IMG/VR virus record: IMGVR_UViG_2703718791_000006
Location: 1 to 7,301 of that record
Reading direction: 5' to 3' (one strand)
DNA length: 7,301 bases
Source of the DNA: a virus
Lineage: Duplodnaviria; Heunggongvirae; Uroviricota; Caudoviricetes
In this document: piece by piece, positions 838 through 7,003 of the stretch
Numbering within the stretch: the first letter of the stretch is position 1
How the letters are laid out: each line of letters begins with the position of its first letter
The notes under the pieces: model-generated
Databases searched by the model: none
Seen by the model: the letters and a program-made list of their open reading frames with translations, nothing else
What the model was told of the DNA's origin: nothing
Program-made: the position numbers and the translations under genes

Positions 838-1137
838 ATGAAACTTAAATATTCTGGCTTAACTGCCAGTGGCAACACTCACCCTAAATTTACGCGCGGT
901 GATATTTACCGCGACCAGTACGGCGGCACGGTAATGATTAAGGGCGTGGCGGGACGGTGCGTAACTTACCGCCGTGAAGGTTACGAATATGATTGCGTGA
1001 TGCCTGTTTATCAGTTCCGGCGTGATTTTTCTCTGGTACAGACCGCGCCGCATAACGTGCCCACCAGCAACGCCAGGGCACGGGCAAACATCCAGAAGCT
1101 GAAAACCATGATTAACGTATTCAGGGGTAAAAAATGA
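838..1137 (+). CDS. hypothetical protein, 99 aa
   Basis: ATG 838 preceded by GGAG (824-827). Stop TGA 1135-1137 overlaps the helicase ATG at 1134 (ATGA coupling). No family recognised. Confidence 0.55.
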   Translation: MKLKYSGLTASGNTHPKFTRGDIYRDQYGGTVMIKGVAGRCVTYRREGYEYDCVMPVYQFRRDFSLVQTAPHNVPTSNARARANIQKLKTMINVFRGKK

Positions 1138-2882
1138 AACTGGCACCGAACGTAAAAAAACAGCCACGCGGAATAAAACACAAAGACACAGAGGTAATTA
1201 TCTTTGCGGGTAGTGATGCCTGGTCGCACGCGAAACAATGGCAGGAGCAGGATGGCCCCGCATCCGGCGATAATGTGCCGCCTGTGTGGCTTGGGCCAAA
1301 GCAGCTTGCCGAACTTGATGCGCTGAAAATTGTTCCGGATGGGAAAAAGCGCGTAAGGCTGTACCAGGCCGGAGAACTAGATTTAGTGGAGACCAAAAAG
1401 ATTGGTCAGAAGCTGGCGGCGGCAGATATTCAGGACGCAAATTTTTACCACGAAGGAATGCACGTCCAGAAGTGTGAAAACTGGCGGCGCTATCTGAATG
1501 CTGAGCGTGAAAATATTGCCGCAGGGCTTACCATGCCGGAGCAGAAAAATACGCAACTGGCACAAATGGCAGACAGTGAGCGCGCACAGATGCTTGCTGG
1601 TCGATTTGATGGCGTTTGTGTGCATCCGGAAAGTGAAATCGTTCACGTATGGCGCGGCGGGGTATGGTGTCCGGTCAGCACAATGGAACTTAGCCGCGAA
1701 ATGGTGGCGATCTATTCAGAGCACAGGGCCACTTTCAGCAAGCGCGTAATCAATAACGCCGTGGAAGCGTTAAAAGTTATTGCCGAACCAATGGGCGAGC
1801 CGTCCGGCGATTTGCTGCCGTTCGCCAATGGTGCGCTTGACCTGAAAACGGGGGAATTTTCCCCGCACACGCCGGAGAACTGGATCACCACGCACAACGG
1901 CATTGAGTACACGCCACCAGCACCAGGGGAGAATATCCGCGACAACGCGCCAAACTTTCATAAATGGCTTGAGCACGCAGCCGGAAAAGACCCGCGCAAG
2001 ATGATGCGTATATGTGCCGCGCTGTACATGATTATGGCGAACCGGTACGACTGGCAGATGTTTATTGAGGCCACCGGAGACGGCGGGAGCGGTAAAAGTA
2101 CATTCACACACATAGCCAGCCTTCTGGCAGGGAAACAGAACACGGTAAGCGCTGAAATGACATCGCTTGATGATGCTGGTGGACGTGCGCAGGTTGTCGG
2201 GAGTCGTCTTATCGTCCTGGCTGACCAGCCGAAATATACAGGCGAAGGAACGGGCATCAAGAAAATCACGGGCGGCGACCCCGTGGAAATTAACCCGAAA
2301 TATGAGAAGCGTTTTACGGCGGTAATCAGGGCGGTGGTGCTGGCTACCAACAATAACCCGATGATATTCACCGAACGGGCCGGAGGTGTGTCACGTCGTC
2401 GCGTAATTTTCCGTTTCGACAATATCGTCAGTGAGGCCGAAAAAGACAGGGAGCTACCGGAAAAGATTGCGGCTGAAATCCCTGTCATTATCCGCCGATT
2501 GCTGGCGAACTTTACCGACCCTGAGAAGGCACGGGCTTTACTACTGGAACAGCGTGACGGTGATGAAGCTCTGGCAATAAAGCAACAGACGGATCCGGTT
2601 ATTGAGTTTTGCCAGTTCCTGAATTTTCTGGAGGAAGCACGCGGCCTGATGATGGGCGGCGGTGGCGATTCAGTGAAGTACACGACCAGGAACAGCCTTT
2701 ACCGCGTCTATCTGGCGTTTATGGCATACGCAGGCAGGAGCAAACCGCTAAACGTGGCTGAGTTCAGCAAGGCCATGAAGCCAGCGGCGAAAGTTTACGG
2801 GCATGAATATATTACGCGAAAAGTTAAGGGAGTAACGCAGACCAACGCAATTACAACAGACGATTGCGACGCGTTTTTATAA
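1134..2882 (+). CDS. replication protein: P4-alpha / D5-type superfamily-3 helicase (phage/plasmid primase C-terminal-domain family)
   Basis: 582-aa ORF with Walker A GDGGSGKST (about nt 2079-2105) and a Walker B-like hydrophobic run ending in Asp (RLIVLADQ) in a central NTPase region, flanked by N- and C-terminal extensions as in P4-alpha/D5-family proteins. Last gene of a coupled operon and immediately followed by an iteron array. Whether a primase domain is present cannot be settled by eye. Confidence 0.7.
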   Translation: MKLAPNVKKQPRGIKHKDTEVIIFAGSDAWSHAKQWQEQDGPASGDNVPPVWLGPKQLAELDALKIVPDGKKRVRLYQAGELDLVETKKIGQKLAAADIQDANFYHEGMHVQKCENWRRYLNAERENIAAGLTMPEQKNTQLAQMADSERAQMLAGRFDGVCVHPESEIVHVWRGGVWCPVSTMELSREMVAIYSEHRATFSKRVINNAVEALKVIAEPMGEPSGDLLPFANGALDLKTGEFSPHTPENWITTHNGIEYTPPAPGENIRDNAPNFHKWLEHAAGKDPRKMMRICAALYMIMANRYDWQMFIEATGDGGSGKSTFTHIASLLAGKQNTVSAEMTSLDDAGGRAQVVGSRLIVLADQPKYTGEGTGIKKITGGDPVEINPKYEKRFTAVIRAVVLATNNNPMIFTERAGGVSRRRVIFRFDNIVSEAEKDRELPEKIAAEIPVIIRRLLANFTDPEKARALLLEQRDGDEALAIKQQTDPVIEFCQFLNFLEEARGLMMGGGGDSVKYTTRNSLYRVYLAFMAYAGRSKPLNVAEFSKAMKPAAKVYGHEYITRKVKGVTQTNAITTDDCDAFL

Positions 2883-2895
2883 TTTTTTGTAAAAG

Positions 2896-3124
2896 CCCTC
2901 TACCCCATCTACCTGAATGAAATAAACGCATATTATTCAACATGATAAGTGGGTAGAGGGCTAGGTAGAAGGCTAATAAAAGCTCTCTACCTCTTCTACC
3001 TGATTTTATCAGTTTCAGGTAGCAGGGTAGACGGCAGGTAGAGGAGCCCAAAAAGCTATCTACCCGCTGAAAGCCGCGCCATTACTGACATGATGAGCAT
3101 TCGGGTAGATGGGTAGAGGGGGGG
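2896..3124. repeat. iteron array, candidate satellite replication origin
   Basis: Twelve copies of GGTAGA or its complement TCTACC, often inside a longer GGGTAGAGG core. Top strand GGTAGA at 2952, 2964, 3026, 3037, 3104, 3112 and GGTAGC at 3018; TCTACC at 2899, 2908, 2986, 2995, 3059. Copies occur in pairs or triplets 9-12 bp apart, in alternating orientation blocks, with AT-rich stretches at 2915-2950 and 3125-3160. Sits between the helicase and the ssb operon. Confidence 0.6.
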
Positions 3125-3165
3125 AGGCACAACTAAAAACTTTTTAAACGAGGGGGTGAAAATAA

Positions 3166-3480
3166 ATGCGCATACATCAAAATCACTTAACAAACATGCC
3201 AGCCGAAAACATGAATCAGGGGCGACAAATGACCAAAATTCGCAGAGACAGAACAGAGCCAAAATATAAAGCGTTAGACATGACTGAGCATACCTTAAAG
3301 GTGGCAATCAGAACGATAGACCGCCACACGCGGGAAGGATACGCGAAGGAACATCCCGACCTGATAAGCGCATTCATGACCACAGCGGCGGCAAACTTTG
3401 CCACGCTGACAGAACGGGAGATTGCCGAAGCGGAACAGGTAACAACCATCAACGTTAAAACCGGAGAGGTGGAATCATGA
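3166..3480 (+). CDS. hypothetical protein, 104 aa, coupled to ssb
   Basis: ATG 3166 about 8 nt downstream of AGGGGGTG. Stop TGA 3478-3480 overlaps the ssb ATG at 3477. Alternative internal starts exist. No family recognised. Confidence 0.5.
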   Translation: MRIHQNHLTNMPAENMNQGRQMTKIRRDRTEPKYKALDMTEHTLKVAIRTIDRHTREGYAKEHPDLISAFMTTAAANFATLTEREIAEAEQVTTINVKTGEVES

Positions 3481-3887
3481 CAGCACAGATAGCCGCTTAC
3501 GGGCGGCTGGTGGACGACCCGCAGGTAAAACAGACCAGCAAGGGCACACCGATGACGCTGGCGCGTATGGCGGTCCCCCTTCCGTGCAGCCAGGCAGATG
3601 ACGGAACGGCTACGTTATGGCTATCGGTGATGGCATTTGGTAAGCAGGCCGACTTCCTGGCTAAACATCAAAAAGGCGACGTTGCCAGCATATCTGGCGT
3701 GATGCAGATAAGCCAGTGGACCGGACAGAACGGGGAAACGCGGCAGGGTTATCAGGTTATTGCAGACAGCGTAATCAGTGCCCGTGCGGCACGTCCTGGC
3801 GGGAACAGACGCAAAACCACAGGCGCACAGGGTAATCAGCCACCAGCGGGAGACGATGACCCCTACGGTGATGATATTCCGTTCTGA
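3477..3887 (+). CDS. ssb: single-stranded DNA-binding protein (short OB-fold SSB with acidic C-terminal tail)
   Basis: 136 aa. N-terminus GRLVDDPQV resembles E. coli SSB GNLGQDPEV, and an aromatic/Gly-Lys OB-fold block (WLSVMAFGKQA versus WHRVVLFGKLA) follows. A Gly/Pro/Gln-rich linker ends in DDDPYGDDIPF, the canonical SSB tail. Good SD (GGAGAGGTGG) upstream. Confidence 0.85.
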   Translation: MTAQIAAYGRLVDDPQVKQTSKGTPMTLARMAVPLPCSQADDGTATLWLSVMAFGKQADFLAKHQKGDVASISGVMQISQWTGQNGETRQGYQVIADSVISARAARPGGNRRKTTGAQGNQPPAGDDDPYGDDIPF

Positions 3888-3895
3888 ACGCACAG

Positions 3896-3919
3896 GCCGG
3901 AGAAAATCCGGCTTTTTGT
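3896..3919 (+). terminator. rho-independent terminator after ssb
   Basis: GCCGGA-gaaaa-TCCGGC hairpin (6-bp GC-rich stem) followed by TTTTT, 9 nt after the ssb stop. Confidence 0.6.
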
Positions 3920-3923
3920 ACCC

Positions 3924-3970
3924 AAAAAAAGCCCGATAAGTACAGGAGGAAGCTTATCGGGCTTTTGCTT
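3924..3970. terminator. second, possibly bidirectional, terminator hairpin
   Basis: 10-bp stem GCCCGATAAG/CTTATCGGGC with a 12-nt loop, A-run upstream (3924-3930) and TTTTG downstream. Confidence 0.45.
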
Positions 3971-4040
3971 ACGAGGTTAACAGCATGGTGACTACTGTTG
4001 CTGTAAATCATTTCATAATTTGCAACACAACTCAATTTTA

Positions 4041-4091
4041 TTGCGCAAAATGCAATCATGATTATAATCATAACTGGATGAACATCCAGTT
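4041..4091 (+). promoter_or_regulatory. candidate sigma70 promoter with two palindromic operators ahead of the capsid operon
   Basis: -35 TTGCGC (4041-4046), 16-bp spacer, -10 TATAAT (4063-4068). Perfect 14-bp palindrome ATGATTATAATCAT (4058-4071) overlaps the -10. Perfect 9-2-9 inverted repeat AACTGGATG-AA-CATCCAGTT (4072-4091) lies just downstream. Confidence 0.45.
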
Positions 4092-4124
4092 GTGATTTTT
4101 TAAGTCAAAGAGGAATTTCTGACT

Positions 4125-4331
4125 ATGGCAGAAGAGAAAAAAGGCGGTGTTTCGGTGTACATAAGCCCCGAAATCGTGGAGGTGCTCAAGCAGCGCCACA
4201 AAAAAAACTATGAGGCTGGCGTAGCGGCTGGACTGGATCCGCTGATGACGCCGGAGCCGTCGATAGGTTCACTTGTGCGCTCTTATTTACTTGCGGCGCT
4301 TGGGATGCATAAAAATTATGGGGGTGAATAA
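4125..4331 (+). CDS. hypothetical small protein, 68 aa; possible ribbon-helix-helix DNA-binding protein
   Basis: N-terminal GGVSVYISPEIVEVLKQ fits a beta-strand plus helix pattern as in Arc/CopG-type RHH proteins, and a second helix SIGSLVRSYLLAALG follows. Stop TAA 4329-4331 overlaps the capsid ATG (TAATG). The fold assignment is a guess from sequence pattern only. Confidence 0.5.
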   Translation: MAEEKKGGVSVYISPEIVEVLKQRHKKNYEAGVAAGLDPLMTPEPSIGSLVRSYLLAALGMHKNYGGE

Positions 4332-5386
4332 TGGCAGGCAAAGCAACGGCACTTAACACTAACCAGCTTTTTGCGTACCTGAATCGCGGGGATATTGCGG
4401 AATTTAAATTTAGTCCGCTGTTTACCACGCTGTTTTTCCCGAAAGTAGCGACATTCAACACCCAAAACATCATGCTGGATAACCTGGACACCGAAGAAGT
4501 CACTATGTCAGCGTTTTGCTCGCCTATGGTTGGTAGCCAGGTACAGCGCGATAAAGGGTACGAAACCAGCACGATTAAACCTGGCTACATGAAGCCAAAG
4601 CACGAAATCGATCCAACAAAAACCATCATGCGCATGGCTGGAGAAGATCCGGCACAGCTTAACGACCCAACCTATCGCCGTATGCGCCTGATTACTGGCA
4701 ACATGCGCCGCCAGGTAAACGCTATTAAAGCGCGTGTTGAATGGCTGGCGGTAAATGCGGTAACGACCGGAAAAAACATCATTGAGGGCGAAGGCATAGA
4801 GCGCTATGAAATCGACTGGAAGATACCGGAAAAAAACATCATAGAGCAGGCCGACGGGAAAAAATGGTCAGAGCAGGACAAAGAAACCCACGATCCAATC
4901 TATGATATCGAACTATACGCCGATCAGGCTGGTTGCCCCGCAAACGTCATGATTATGGGCGCTGAGGTATGGCGAACGTTACGCAGCTTTAAAAAATTCC
5001 GTGAGCTGTACGATCTTTCCCGTGGTTCAGAGTCCGCCGCAGAGCTGGCCTGTAAAAACCTGGGCGAAGTGGTGAGCTTTAAAGGCTATCTGGGCGATAT
5101 TGCCCTTATCGTCTATTCCGGCAAATACGCCGACAGCGACGGCACCGAAAAACATTTCCTTGAGCCTGATTTGCTGGTCTTGGGCAACACCAACAATAAA
5201 GGGCTGGTTGCTTATGGTGCGATTATGGATCAGGAAGCGGTAAGAACGGGCGCAACGCAAAACATGTACTACCCGAAAAACTGGATTGAGGACGGCGATC
5301 CGGCGATTGAGTACGTGCAGACGCACAGCGCACCGCAGCCGGTGCCGGCAGACATTCGCAAATTTGTTACCGTCAAAATTGGTTAA
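4331..5386 (+). CDS. major capsid protein, lambda gpE family (HK97 fold)
   Basis: 351 aa, colinear over its full length with lambda gpE (341 aa) as recalled. Conserved blocks: FKFSPLF versus FKFDPLF; PGYMKPKHEIDP versus PGYVKPKHEVNP; DPTYRRMRLITGNMR versus DPAYRRRRIIMQNMR; RGSESAAELACKNLGEVVSFKGYLGDIALIVYSGKY versus RGSNSELETAVKDLGKAVSYKGMYGDVAIVVYSGQY; YPKNWIEDGDPAIEY versus YPKNWVTTGDPAREF. SD GGGGTGA upstream. Confidence 0.9.
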   Translation: MAGKATALNTNQLFAYLNRGDIAEFKFSPLFTTLFFPKVATFNTQNIMLDNLDTEEVTMSAFCSPMVGSQVQRDKGYETSTIKPGYMKPKHEIDPTKTIMRMAGEDPAQLNDPTYRRMRLITGNMRRQVNAIKARVEWLAVNAVTTGKNIIEGEGIERYEIDWKIPEKNIIEQADGKKWSEQDKETHDPIYDIELYADQAGCPANVMIMGAEVWRTLRSFKKFRELYDLSRGSESAAELACKNLGEVVSFKGYLGDIALIVYSGKYADSDGTEKHFLEPDLLVLGNTNNKGLVAYGAIMDQEAVRTGATQNMYYPKNWIEDGDPAIEYVQTHSAPQPVPADIRKFVTVKIG

Positions 5387-5397
5387 CGGGGGATTCT

Positions 5398-5733
5398 ATG
5401 AACACTCCATACATTGAGTTATTTGCAGGCAGTCAGCAGGTATCCACGACGCTGGTACATTTTGCCGCTGATGCTGGCGTCATTCAGGAATTTACCCCGC
5501 TGATGCTGGCGGACAATGGCGAGTTTAAGCCGTGGGATGGTCAGGCGTCCGGAAAGGCTGTTTATCTGACTTCGTACCCCGTGGACACGTCAAAGCAGAA
5601 ATCAGCACAGTGCTACAAGACGGGGATCTTTAATATCGCCGCCGTGAACTGGCCCGAGAGCGTCGACACCGATGCGAAAAAATGCGCCGCCTTTGCGGGT
5701 TCTGGCGTATCCGTTCAGCCGCTGGCCCGATAA
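5398..5733 (+). CDS. head decoration protein, lambda gpD family
   Basis: 111 aa versus gpD 110 aa. Shared blocks: TPLMLAD / TPLMLD, WDG, YKTGIFN..WPE / YKSGTF..WPE, KKCAAFAGSG / KKRTAFAGT. SD GGGGGAT upstream. Gene order is capsid then decoration, the reverse of lambda's D then E. Confidence 0.8.
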   Translation: MNTPYIELFAGSQQVSTTLVHFAADAGVIQEFTPLMLADNGEFKPWDGQASGKAVYLTSYPVDTSKQKSAQCYKTGIFNIAAVNWPESVDTDAKKCAAFAGSGVSVQPLAR

Positions 5734-6188: not shown

Positions 6189-6265
6189 ACGGGTCCTTTC
6201 CGGCATATGGACCCGTTACGGGGCGGCGACCTCGCGGTTTTTCGCTATTTATGACGTTTTTCCGT
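6187..6265 (+). other. lambda-type cos site, copy 1 (cosQ, cosN, I2-like proximal cosB)
   Basis: TTTACGGGTCCTTTCCGG (6187-6204) matches the lambda right-end cosQ region. GGGCGGCGACCT (6221-6232) is identical to the lambda 12-nt cohesive end, and the 17-bp spacing between them is kept. The following CGCGGTTTTTCGCTATTTATGA closely matches the lambda left end CGCGGGTTTTCGCTATTTATGA. No ATGTCCGGTT-type repeats before the terS start. Confidence 0.75.
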
Positions 6266-6269
6266 GAAG

Positions 6270-6321: not shown

Positions 6322-6756
6322 ATGATTGATAAAGCTTGTTTTGTAAGTCAGCAGGAAATAGCTGAACATTTCAAGGTTAACAGAACCACTATTCGCGCAT
6401 GGACCAAACAGGGGATGCCGTATCTTAATGCGGATCGCGGAAAGTCCGGCGGTTATCACATCGGGCATACATTGCTTTGGTCTTCAGGTAAAAGCCATCT
6501 TGAGGCCATTGGATATCACGTAGAAACCAGTGCGCTGGAAAAAATTATGTTTGCCAGGCTGCTTTCATCTGAGCGTGACGAGTACTCCAGTGAAGAAACA
6601 GAACATCGATTTGATGAAGGTTTGCAGATTTACGGATATTCACCGGAAGATGTGAGCAAGGCACGAAATAAAATGGCTGGCTTTCTGGCTGGGTGGCGTC
6701 ATGCCGTAAGCGTTCGCCGTGCCAGCATGGAGCAATCAGCCGATACAGAACAGTAA
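6322..6756 (+). CDS. small terminase-like protein, phage Nu1 family (N-terminal winged-HTH DNA-binding domain)
   Basis: 144 aa. N-terminus SQQEIAEHFKVNRTTIRAWTKQGMPYL parallels lambda Nu1 KKQLADIFGASIRTIQNWQEQGMPVL. It is shorter than Nu1 (181 aa) and diverges after the HTH. It sits about 90 bp downstream of the cos copy 1 cohesive end, where lambda has Nu1. Confidence 0.75.
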   Translation: MIDKACFVSQQEIAEHFKVNRTTIRAWTKQGMPYLNADRGKSGGYHIGHTLLWSSGKSHLEAIGYHVETSALEKIMFARLLSSERDEYSSEETEHRFDEGLQIYGYSPEDVSKARNKMAGFLAGWRHAVSVRRASMEQSADTEQ

Positions 6757-6924: not shown

Positions 6925-7003
6925 TCCCGAAAAATTTTCATAAATAGTGAAAACGCGCGAGGTCGCCGCCCCGTAACGGGCCATAATTCCAGGAAGGACC
7001 CGA
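6925..7003 (-). other. second lambda-type cos site, inverted (cosQ-like, cosN, I2-like)
   Basis: Bottom strand reads CGGGTCCTTCCTGG..CGTTACG-GGGCGGCGACCT-CGCGCGTTTTCACTATTTATGAAAATTTTT. The cohesive-end 12-mer occupies 6960-6971 on the minus strand. 6956-6980 is a perfect 25-bp inverted repeat of 6212-6236, with imperfect similarity continuing on both sides. The cosQ-like element differs from lambda at a few positions. Confidence 0.65.

Follow-up and report, generated by a model that had tools for sequence, protein, structure and literature searches.

The window analyzed here, a stretch of DNA of 7,301 nt taken at its full length, is a phage-inducible chromosomal island (PICI) of E. coli of the EcCICFT073 type. 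It is collinear with positions 1380869-1388638 of the CFT073 genome (88% coverage, 92% identity) and also matches strain STEC434 (99% coverage, 97% identity). In related loci, an integrase gene and small HTH genes are found just left of the matched region, and the window begins to their right. A preliminary description of this DNA recognized a phage satellite and hinted at a P4-like element; the satellite identity stands, whereas the collinearity with EcCICFT073 argues for a PICI rather than a P4-like element. For EcCICFT073 itself, helper-phage-dependent induction, replication, and high-frequency transfer have been demonstrated (PMC6092414).

The replication module of the island is composed of a P4-family primase gene, an iteron origin, a small open reading frame (ORF), the ssb gene, and two terminator-like hairpins, in that order (Table 1). 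The initiator product matched the Pfam families D5_N (8e-15), DUF5906 (4.6e-10), and Pox_D5, as well as the PHROG 864 DNA primase family (5e-169), and it scored 109.2 bits against TIGR01613, for which the cutoff is 108.7. All 11 copies of GGTAGA in the window are confined to the predicted origin, against a chance expectation of 1.6, and a count of 11 was reached in none of 200 shuffles; the layout of this region agrees with that described for origins of Gram-negative PICIs (PMC6092414). The placement of ssb beside the origin, as originally proposed, is roughly right, with the iterons located about 360 bp upstream and one small ORF in between. This small ORF belongs to PHROG 1231, and neither Pfam, at E-values up to 5, nor the PDB sequences gave a credible match for it; its RefSeq ortholog starts at the ATG at 3229 (83 aa). 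The start codon of ssb shares bases with the stop codon of the small ORF (ATGA).

Table 1. Predicted genes, protein regions, and sequence signals in the window
Feature	Position	Strand	Details
PICI replication initiator pri-rep, 582 aa	1134..2882	+	P4-family primase C-terminal / D5_N / DUF5906 helicase-type
Iteron-type replication origin, predicted	2899..3117	.	11 GGTAGA in both orientations, two sets around an AT-rich stretch (~2914-2948)
Small ORF (PHROG 1231, function-unknown family)	3166..3480	+	phrog_1231 1.9e-52, residues 22-104
Shine-Dalgarno-like GGAGAGG	3463..3469	+	7 nt 5' of the ssb ATG; direct sequence reading
ssb coding sequence	3477..3887	+	136 aa + stop; ATG start, TGA stop
OB-fold ssDNA-binding domain, predicted	3477..3788	+	residues 1-104 (AlphaFold2, Foldseek, alignment)
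Short disordered linker	3789..3851	+	residues 105-125, ARPGGNRRKTTGAQGNQPPAG, net charge +4; pLDDT 49-58
Acidic C-terminal tip	3852..3884	+	residues 126-136, DDDPYGDDIPF, net charge -5
Terminator-like hairpin 1	3894..3917	+	GC stem then T run; 7 nt past the ssb stop codon
Terminator-like hairpin 2	3927..3966	.	15-bp stem, A run before, T run after
Lambda-type major capsid protein E and head decoration protein D homologs	4331..5733	+	Phage_cap_E 2.2e-52, HDPD 5.6e-18 (Pfam)
78-nt inverted repeat, lambdoid cos-like	6190-6267 + 6925-7002	.	81% complementary

Downstream of ssb, hairpin 1 has a predicted folding energy of -14.2 kcal/mol (z -2.86) and hairpin 2 of -22.1 kcal/mol (z -4.61), with equally good folds of the latter obtained in 0 of 200 shuffles. 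Since hairpin 2 is flanked by both an A run and a T run, it may be bidirectional. The consensus terminator scan listed neither hairpin 3' of ssb on the + strand, and their support comes from RNA folding. An Rfam scan of the window yielded no RNA family at gathering score. The region that follows encodes the capsid and decoration protein homologs, as in c1499/c1500 of EcCICFT073 (PMC6092414). Farther on, a segment at 6185-6254 matches cos-region sequences of lambdoid phages, among them phage 21, and recurs in inverted form at 6925-7002. Between the arms of this repeat lies a 144-aa ORF (6322-6756) encoding an HTH / small-terminase-like protein (PHROG 57 small terminase, 4.5e-8). In EcCICFT073, which carries cos1 and cos2, RppA is 144 residues long (PMC6739421). 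The ORF in the window, which has the length and position of RppA, probably encodes an Rpp homolog.

Family, fold, and C-terminal tip of the SSB

The product of the ssb gene is almost certainly a single-stranded DNA-binding protein. It matched the Pfam SSB family PF00436 with 56.4 bits (cutoff 26; E 3.5e-15) over residues 5-99, corresponding to profile positions 4-101 of 104, and PHROG 44 SSB with an E-value of 3.4e-38. The score against the NCBIfam model TIGR00621 'ssb' was 52.8 bits, i.e., 1.2 bits short of the cutoff of 53.95, a shortfall that we attribute to sequence divergence and the short linker; RefSeq names the protein SSB all the same. Among proteins of solved structure, 23 PDB SSB sequences matched at E<=1e-3, including the best-scoring SSB of T. 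maritima (1z9f, 2.8e-10) and that of E. coli (1eqq, 2e-5). Other OB-fold families (PriB, the phage gp2.5 and gp32 types, cold-shock and similar proteins) were looked for as well, a non-SSB OB-fold profile having been named beforehand as an observation that would overturn the assignment; they are ruled out, as the matches comprise SSB profiles and structures only.

An AlphaFold2 model of the monomer has a mean pLDDT of 83, with about 94 over residues 1-100 and 49-58 over the tail (residues 105-136). The order of its strands (3-11, 16-19, 25-36, 44-54, 69-82, and 88-101) and helix (55-62) is as expected for an SSB, and the best 50 matches listed in a Foldseek comparison with the PDB were all bacterial SSBs, with target-normalised TM-scores of 0.66-0.84. 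Residues W48, F54, W81, K56, and K66 align with W54, F60, W88, K62, and K73 of E. coli SSB. Of the four aromatic residues that stack on ssDNA in E. coli SSB (W40, W54, F60, and W88), three are thus kept, and the position of W40 is occupied by C37 within a shortened loop; in an alignment of 45 sequences F54 is invariant and W48 nearly so. The tetramer-interface residue H55 of E. coli SSB is replaced by L49, and on this ground a tetrameric state of the PICI protein is neither proved nor excluded.

Comparison with the chromosomal SSB of E. coli (P0AGE0; 1eqq, 1eyg) revealed a common PF00436 OB fold and a common plan, in which a disordered linker leads to an acidic tip with DDIPF as its last five residues. 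The two proteins share only about 24% identity and differ in length (136 vs 178 aa), and the L23 loop is shortened in the PICI protein. The linkers differ as well, with 21 residues and a net charge of +4 in the PICI SSB against 56 residues, rich in Gly, Gln, and Pro, in E. coli SSB. Unlike its chromosomal counterpart, the PICI SSB is dispensable to the cell and is located on a mobile island. The T. maritima SSB, which gave the best sequence score of all proteins of known structure (residues 5-101), is likewise short; it is encoded on the chromosome of a thermophile and not on a mobile element, and its likeness to the PICI protein is limited to the OB domain. The preliminary description of a minimal SSB with a canonical tail was borne out in each of its testable parts by the ORF of 136 aa ending in DDDPYGDDIPF, the Pfam match above cutoff, and the last five residues, which match E. 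coli SSB exactly. The word minimal is fair with respect to the linker, but the protein is not unique, since a length of 125-150 aa is common in related SSBs.

SSB-interacting proteins bind at the C-terminal tip of SSB (PMC10164576). Among 120 close homologs of the PICI protein, 64 have PYGDDIPF at the C terminus and 27 have PYGDNIPF. The linker is the length-variable region among homologs of 136-153 aa, and other alleles in E. coli PICIs and capsid-forming PICIs (140-153 aa) have longer linkers and the tips DNIPF, DEIPF, or DETPF. The Klebsiella relatives have the C-terminal sequence DDDF without IPF, which indicates that not all members of this SSB lineage copy the host tip exactly.

Distribution of the ssb lineage and relation to other mobile-element SSBs

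In a set of 5,426 complete genomes of E. coli, the ssb gene was matched in 1,782, or about a third; at a coverage of at least 80%, an intact ORF is present in 1,672 genomes. In comparisons with six homologs, dN/dS was 0.10-0.27 where dS is unsaturated, and the gene is under purifying selection. That the ORF is not a chance one follows from this spread and the low dN/dS, together with the Pfam and PHROG matches and the kept tip. In CFT073, the same gene (WP_000126698.1, C_RS06995) encodes a protein of 136 aa with 128 identical residues, which also ends in PYGDDIPF and is also located behind pri-rep, the origin, and the small ORF; directly 3' of it lies perC, whereas the two terminator-like hairpins occupy this place in the window.

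The genomic context was compared in 15 sampled loci, 12 from E. coli and 3 from Klebsiella; a single-protein scan of species-representative genomes gave 5 loci, of which the 3 Klebsiella ones were informative. RefSeq assigns the label SSB at all loci listed or fetched, except for one row without a feature under the match. In all 15 sampled loci, which cover both classical PICI and capsid-forming PICI layouts, the same SSB lineage is found about 0.2-1 kb downstream of an initiator gene. These initiators are diverse, with the annotations DNA primase family, P4-family primase, DUF927, and TOPRIM+DUF927, and untyped upstream ORFs of 920-942 aa in Klebsiella. In strain RM10466, an ssb gene identical at the nucleotide level (WP_000126680.1) adjoins a different initiator with different iterons and origin. 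Homology of this locus to the window restarts at 3226, and the small ORF is co-inherited with ssb there. In PICIs L003, L004, and L005 the small ORF is absent and the same ssb directly follows the origin. The identity of ssb next to a different initiator and iterons in RM10466 points to a function independent of the initiator and, combined with the fixed place of the gene after varied initiators, marks ssb as a generic gene of the replication module.

In a tblastn search of 50,697 phage records, the records tallied or listed did not include any Escherichia phage, and identity did not exceed 33%, a value reached by the best match, to a phage record from human feces. This search rules out a helper-phage origin of ssb. 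It also indicates that the SSB of coliphage HK620 is not closely related to the PICI SSB, given that no Escherichia phage was retrieved at E<=1e-3.

In the preliminary description, an element-encoded SSB beside the origin was regarded as noteworthy. The finding is correct yet ordinary, as the PICI ssb gene was already known: RefSeq labels it as SSB, and in PMC10111431 primase, SSB, and DUF5906 are grouped as replication genes of Gram-negative PICIs that colocalize with mapped origins. In the literature on PICIs, EcCICFT073, and cf-PICIs, we found the link to SSB in PMC10111431 and its preprint only; the searchable experimental PICI papers make no mention of an ssb gene, and no experimental reports on this PICI SSB, be it on its binding to ssDNA or to partners, its oligomer state, or the phenotype of a deletion, were found in the searchable literature. 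SSBs with host-like tips are also well known from other mobile elements. The SSBs encoded in the leading region of F-type plasmids are closely related to E. coli SSB, in contrast to the divergent PICI lineage. Their early expression in the conjugation recipient and their link to psiB and SOS suppression also set them apart from the PICI SSB. Both kinds are mobile-element proteins, and the plasmid SSBs work alongside the host SSB (PMC9849209, PMC8406263). Similarly, the temperate coliphage HK620 encodes an SSB in addition to that of its host, whose host-like tip NDYPPF is needed for partner recruitment and which stimulates the neighboring Sak4 via its last six residues (PMC5928155). The HK620 gene adjoins the recombinase gene sak4, while the PICI ssb adjoins a replication origin.

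Proposed role of the PICI SSB and alternative explanations

We propose, with a probability of roughly 60%, that the protein is the SSB of the PICI replication module, which is made upon helper induction, coats ssDNA at the forks, recruits host partners, and raises the supply of SSB. Induction of the island by a helper phage would lead to synthesis of the SSB together with the replication genes. The protein would form a homo-oligomer, probably a tetramer, and coat ssDNA exposed at PICI forks, where its host-identical tip may recruit SSB-interacting proteins such as the chi subunit of Pol III, primase, PriA, and RecQ. More SSB would thereby be available during the heavy replication of both helper and island, when host SSB may be limiting. 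The rep gene and ori have been reported to drive plasmid replication in DH5alpha, with ssb unmentioned; the reported sufficiency of rep and ori suggests that ssb acts as an enhancer rather than as an essential initiation factor. Across islands with differing initiators and packaging modules, few genes of the replication module are as constant as ssb. What it may add includes copy number under SSB limitation, partner recruitment, and an interplay with helper recombination or with SSB-sensing defenses.

The shared tip also allows a more antagonistic interpretation, which we consider unlikely, namely that a genuine SSB was selected as a competitor of host SSB for the proteins that bind its tip. 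Its targets could be PriA, RecQ, RecJ, ExoI, RecO, and chi of the host, or Red-beta and Orf of a helper lambda, and its effect would be to bias replication and recombination resources toward the island or to contribute to helper interference. Identity of the tip with that of host SSB is consistent with such competition, as is the interaction of lambda Red-beta and Orf with E. coli SSB (PMC6393309, PMC4118853). The short and basic linker lacks the Gly/Gln/Pro-rich stretch, and the behavior of the protein on DNA may therefore differ from that of host SSB; the lack of a close homolog in any sequenced coliphage (best match 33%, in the fecal phage record) fits a satellite-specific tool. However, the known interference by EcCICFT073 acts on packaging through Rpp and the small terminase, and expression of RppA left phage replication unaffected (PMC6739421). 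Moreover, no sequence feature separates a competitor from an ordinary SSB, and a function at the fork is the simpler explanation for the fixed position of the gene in the replication module beside varied initiators. A bolder version is less probable still: the tip, carried on an unusually short basic linker of a satellite-specific SSB, would have been selected to capture chi, PriA, RecQ, or lambda Red-beta/Orf onto island DNA, making the protein a hijacking or helper-interference factor and not just an extra SSB, which could in addition be sensed by, or shield against, SSB-sensing defenses.

An interface with anti-phage defense taken by itself appears quite improbable. The protein would shield the island from host systems that detect foreign SSB or ssDNA covered with SSB, or act as a decoy for them, or it would itself trigger such systems and so help to abort infection by the helper. 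Phage SSBs are the activating signal of Retron-Eco8 (PMC13402713), and ssDNA bound by viral SSB activates DARNA (bioRxiv 10.64898/2026.02.22.705581); at 24% identity to host SSB, the PICI protein could be read as non-self. Nevertheless, this explanation is purely speculative: no PADLOC defense-system model matched the SSB or its small neighbors, no defense genes adjoin ssb in the window, and the position of ssb is tied to rep-ori and not to the accessory or defense hotspots of PICIs. We give slightly less credence again to a role in which the SSB mainly serves an annealing or recombination protein, possibly the translationally coupled small ORF. The HK620 SSB-Sak4 pair provides a precedent (PMC5928155), and the small ORF, joined to ssb by the ATGA overlap, is inherited together with it. 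Yet this ORF (83-104 aa) matches no annealing-protein family or other family of known function, it is missing from the three islands mentioned above that carry the same ssb, and the window lacks genes for Sak4, Erf, Red-beta, and RecT. The least probable explanation is a decaying or non-functional passenger acquired from another element; ssb is reportedly not needed for replication of a rep-ori plasmid, but the ORF remains intact in the many genomes counted above under a dN/dS of 0.1-0.27, the tip and DNA-binding residues are conserved, and the synteny is fixed, so that the selection and conservation data effectively refute it.

SSB-family assignment and domain layout

The plus-strand open reading frame at positions 3477-3887 encodes a protein of 136 aa (MTAQIAAYGRLV...DDDPYGDDIPF), exactly where the preliminary description had placed a minimal SSB with a DDIPF tail. 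Its ATG follows a Shine-Dalgarno-like GGAGAGG ending 7 nt upstream and shares bases, as ATGA, with the termination codon of the ORF before it. The protein matches Pfam PF00436 (SSB) with 56.4 bits (gathering cutoff 26) over profile positions 4-101 of 104, PHROG 44 (single-strand DNA binding protein) at 3.4e-38 and 15 NCBIfam SSB models; the general NCBIfam model TIGR00621 gives 52.8, slightly below its cutoff of 53.95. Phmmer searches against PDB sequences returned 23 chains, all named single-strand(ed) DNA-binding protein; 1z9f of Thermotoga maritima ranks first (2.8e-10), and E. coli SSB 1eqq reaches 2e-5. A 45-sequence alignment and an AlphaFold2 model were built (mean pLDDT 83, about 94 for residues 1-100); the strand-strand-strand-helix-strand-strand order of residues 1-100 is that of an OB fold, and residues 105-136, being modelled with low confidence, are probably disordered. 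Since the best 50 of 199 Foldseek matches in the PDB (E<=0.001) are all bacterial SSBs, the structure search, like the profiles and PDB sequences, leads to the SSB family and to no other OB-fold family. The gene product is almost certainly an SSB, and within the bacterial family it is divergent.

The E. coli SSB sequence, checked against 1eqq, was compared in an alignment that also included the window protein and a diverse set of 51 relatives; the window protein and E. coli SSB share about 24% identity. In the window protein, W48, F54 and W81 occupy the positions of the E. coli aromatics W54, F60 and W88, and K56 and K66 those of lysines K62 and K73; W40 is replaced by C37 within a shortened loop, and H55 by L49. 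Most DNA-contact residues are thus kept in an SSB-family OB fold. The DDIPF end of the tip is identical to that of the host protein. The basic linker of 21 aa, for which the word minimal is fair, differs from the Gly/Gln/Pro-rich linker of 56 aa in E. coli SSB. Overall size is not exceptional, because many of the best among 5,120 relatives (E<=1e-3), found exhaustively among 1.84 billion cluster representatives, have 125-150 aa. Acidic, then hydrophobic tips (D-D/E/A/P-I/L/V-P-F and variants) are common among these relatives, and of the 150 matches listed, 123 have 110-210 aa and 36 of these end in [ILVM]PF.

Features of the window in their order along the island
Feature	Positions	Strand	Remarks
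Small ORFs, then DUF4222 ORF			start of gene order
Initiator (pri-rep), P4-family primase / D5_N / DUF5906	1134-2882		after DUF4222 ORF
Intergenic region, small ORF (PHROG 1231), ssb			in this order 3' of initiator
SSB OB domain, residues 1-104	3477-3788	+	net charge +1
SSB linker, residues 105-125 (21 aa)	3789-3851	+	net charge +4
SSB acidic tip, residues 126-136 (11 aa)	3852-3884	+	net charge -5
Terminator-like hairpin 1, then T run	3894-3917		after ssb stop; -14.2 kcal/mol, z -2.9
Terminator-like hairpin 2, then T run	3927-3966		after hairpin 1; -22.1 kcal/mol, z -4.6
PHROG 3255 ORF, capsid protein E homologue, decoration protein D homologue			in this order 3' of ssb
PHROG 1999 ORF, cos-like sequence, 144-aa HTH / small-terminase-like ORF			after decoration protein D homologue

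Island context and exchange of the ssb module

The window aligns over 99% of its length to a chromosomal island of E. coli STEC434 (97% identity) and over 88% to CFT073 1380869-1388638 (92% identity), which is EcCICFT073, the model Gram-negative phage-inducible chromosomal island (PICI); this collinearity bears out the satellite nature of the element. The EcCICFT073 ssb is the same gene (128 of 136 residues identical). All 11 window copies of GGTAGA, in both orientations, lie within 2899-3117 of the intergenic region (1.6 expected by chance; 11 reached in 0 of 200 shuffles) as two sets flanking an AT-rich stretch, the origin layout of Gram-negative PICIs (PMC6092414). The placement of ssb beside the origin was right to within about 360 bp. 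With two hairpins and T runs directly after its stop, ssb in this variant appears to close the replication transcription unit.

The small ORF 3166-3480 (RefSeq-style start 3229), coupled translationally to ssb through the ATGA overlap, has no match in Pfam or the PDB; it occurs in many PICIs and is absent from others, where ssb directly follows the origin. A perC-family regulator gene lies directly 3' of ssb in CFT073 and in several other islands; window 3888-4124, set against 11091-11339 of the fetched locus L001, lacks perC and carries the two hairpins in its place. One E. coli genome match (H108), in which the first 75 nt of ssb fall under a perC annotation, hints at rearrangements at the ssb-perC junction. 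Some PICIs carry a ProQ/FinO-family gene (RNA chaperone type) immediately 3' of ssb and ahead of perC (L004 7467-7934, L005 7462-7998).

Of 5,426 complete E. coli genomes, 1,782 contain matches to ssb, the highest number of copies in one genome being six; an SSB feature underlies all but one of the listed matches holding most of the gene, the exception being partial. In E. coli RM10466 (6248-9411 of its locus, against window 1134-3887), an ssb 100% identical in nucleotides (WP_000126680.1) adjoins a DUF927-type initiator and entirely different iterons (TGCGGGTTA / TAACCCGCA type); window 1487-3225 has no counterpart there, and the two sequences become homologous again at 3226, where the small ORF starts. 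RM10466 represents a clean module exchange with its breakpoint at that start, so that the small ORF and ssb recombine as a unit separate from the initiator and origin. The initiator gene precedes ssb by about 0.2-1 kb in 12 of 12 E. coli loci fetched, its annotation there being DNA primase family, P4-family primase, DUF927 or TOPRIM+DUF927; in three Klebsiella loci a 920-942-aa ORF precedes ssb at a distance in the same range. Placement is the same with EcCICFT073-like packaging modules (capsid E, decoration D, Rpp or small terminase) and with capsid-forming ones (HK97 capsid, protease, portal); the latter islands (L012, L013, L016) indicate that the replication module, ssb included, is common to PICI classes that differ in packaging.

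The lineage appears satellite-specific: tblastn against 50,697 phage records gave no match above 33% identity, and none of the records tallied or listed was from an Escherichia phage. Relatives with 54-71% identity lie on a few small enterobacterial "plasmids" (10-40 kb records H63-H78, from Klebsiella, Enterobacter, Serratia and Sodalis), which could be excised satellites, phage-plasmids or true plasmids.

Selection and proposed role at island forks

Against six homologous genes, dN/dS (Nei-Gojobori) is 0.10-0.27 wherever dS is unsaturated, and 64 of 120 close homologues end in PYGDDIPF and 27 in PYGDNIPF. By these comparisons ssb is kept by selection, tip included; such selection and conservation effectively exclude a decaying passenger gene.

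We favor, with a probability of about 0.6, a role in which the PICI SSB adds SSB capacity and recruits host proteins at island forks. Made with the replication genes once the helper triggers induction, it would oligomerise and coat single-stranded DNA there, its DDIPF tip would recruit host replisome and restart proteins, and extra capacity would be available while helper and island both amplify. These steps draw on established SSB biology, in which interacting proteins dock on the C-terminal tip, as outlined in PMC10164576, and are consistent with a placement in the replication module that is fixed, independent of initiator type, in the sampled loci. The E. coli linker is described as contributing to cooperativity and condensate formation (PMC11947617), and the short, basic linker suggests that both may be weaker here. 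Rep plus ori reportedly replicates as a plasmid in DH5alpha, so the island SSB would not be required to fire the origin.

It is unlikely that the protein acts chiefly by competing for or hijacking tail-reading proteins, among them lambda Red-beta and Orf, with which host SSB does interact (PMC6393309, PMC4118853). A defence interface is improbable: phage SSB is sensed by Retron-Eco8 and DARNA, but the search with PADLOC gave no match. Slighter still is the chance of a partnership with a recombination mediator, as for HK620 SSB and Sak4, given that the window contains no annealing-protein gene and several PICIs lack the coupled small ORF. The earlier observation of an SSB gene is confirmed and its interpretation supported.

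The suggestion that an element-encoded SSB is unusual fails: temperate phages and conjugative plasmids also encode extra SSBs, to which the PICI protein is comparable. The gene is already known, and RefSeq names it SSB in every fetched locus; the two main experimental EcCICFT073 papers contain 0 occurrences of SSB each, and in the literature searched no other link between PICIs and SSB was found than PMC10111431, which counts SSB with primase and DUF5906 among the Gram-negative PICI replication genes located with mapped origins, and its preprint. Of mild interest are a lineage that appears satellite-specific, its modularity relative to the initiator and its tip variation.

Tip variants in the lineage comprise DDIPF, DNIPF, DEIPF and DETPF, with DDDF in Klebsiella. 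The SSBs of three Klebsiella PICI-like islands (L006, L007 and L008; 9001-9444), 56-68% identical, end in ...YDDDF and not ...DDIPF, yet the chromosomal SSB of K. pneumoniae is closely related to that of E. coli; thus not every member of the lineage mimics the host tip exactly. Elsewhere in the window, a 78-nt inverted repeat (6190-6267 / 6925-7002) with 81% complementarity brackets the 144-aa HTH / small-terminase-like ORF (6322-6756), a layout that looks like cos1/cos2 and rpp of EcCICFT073; the left arm of the repeat matches the cos region of several lambdoid phages, phage 21 among them.
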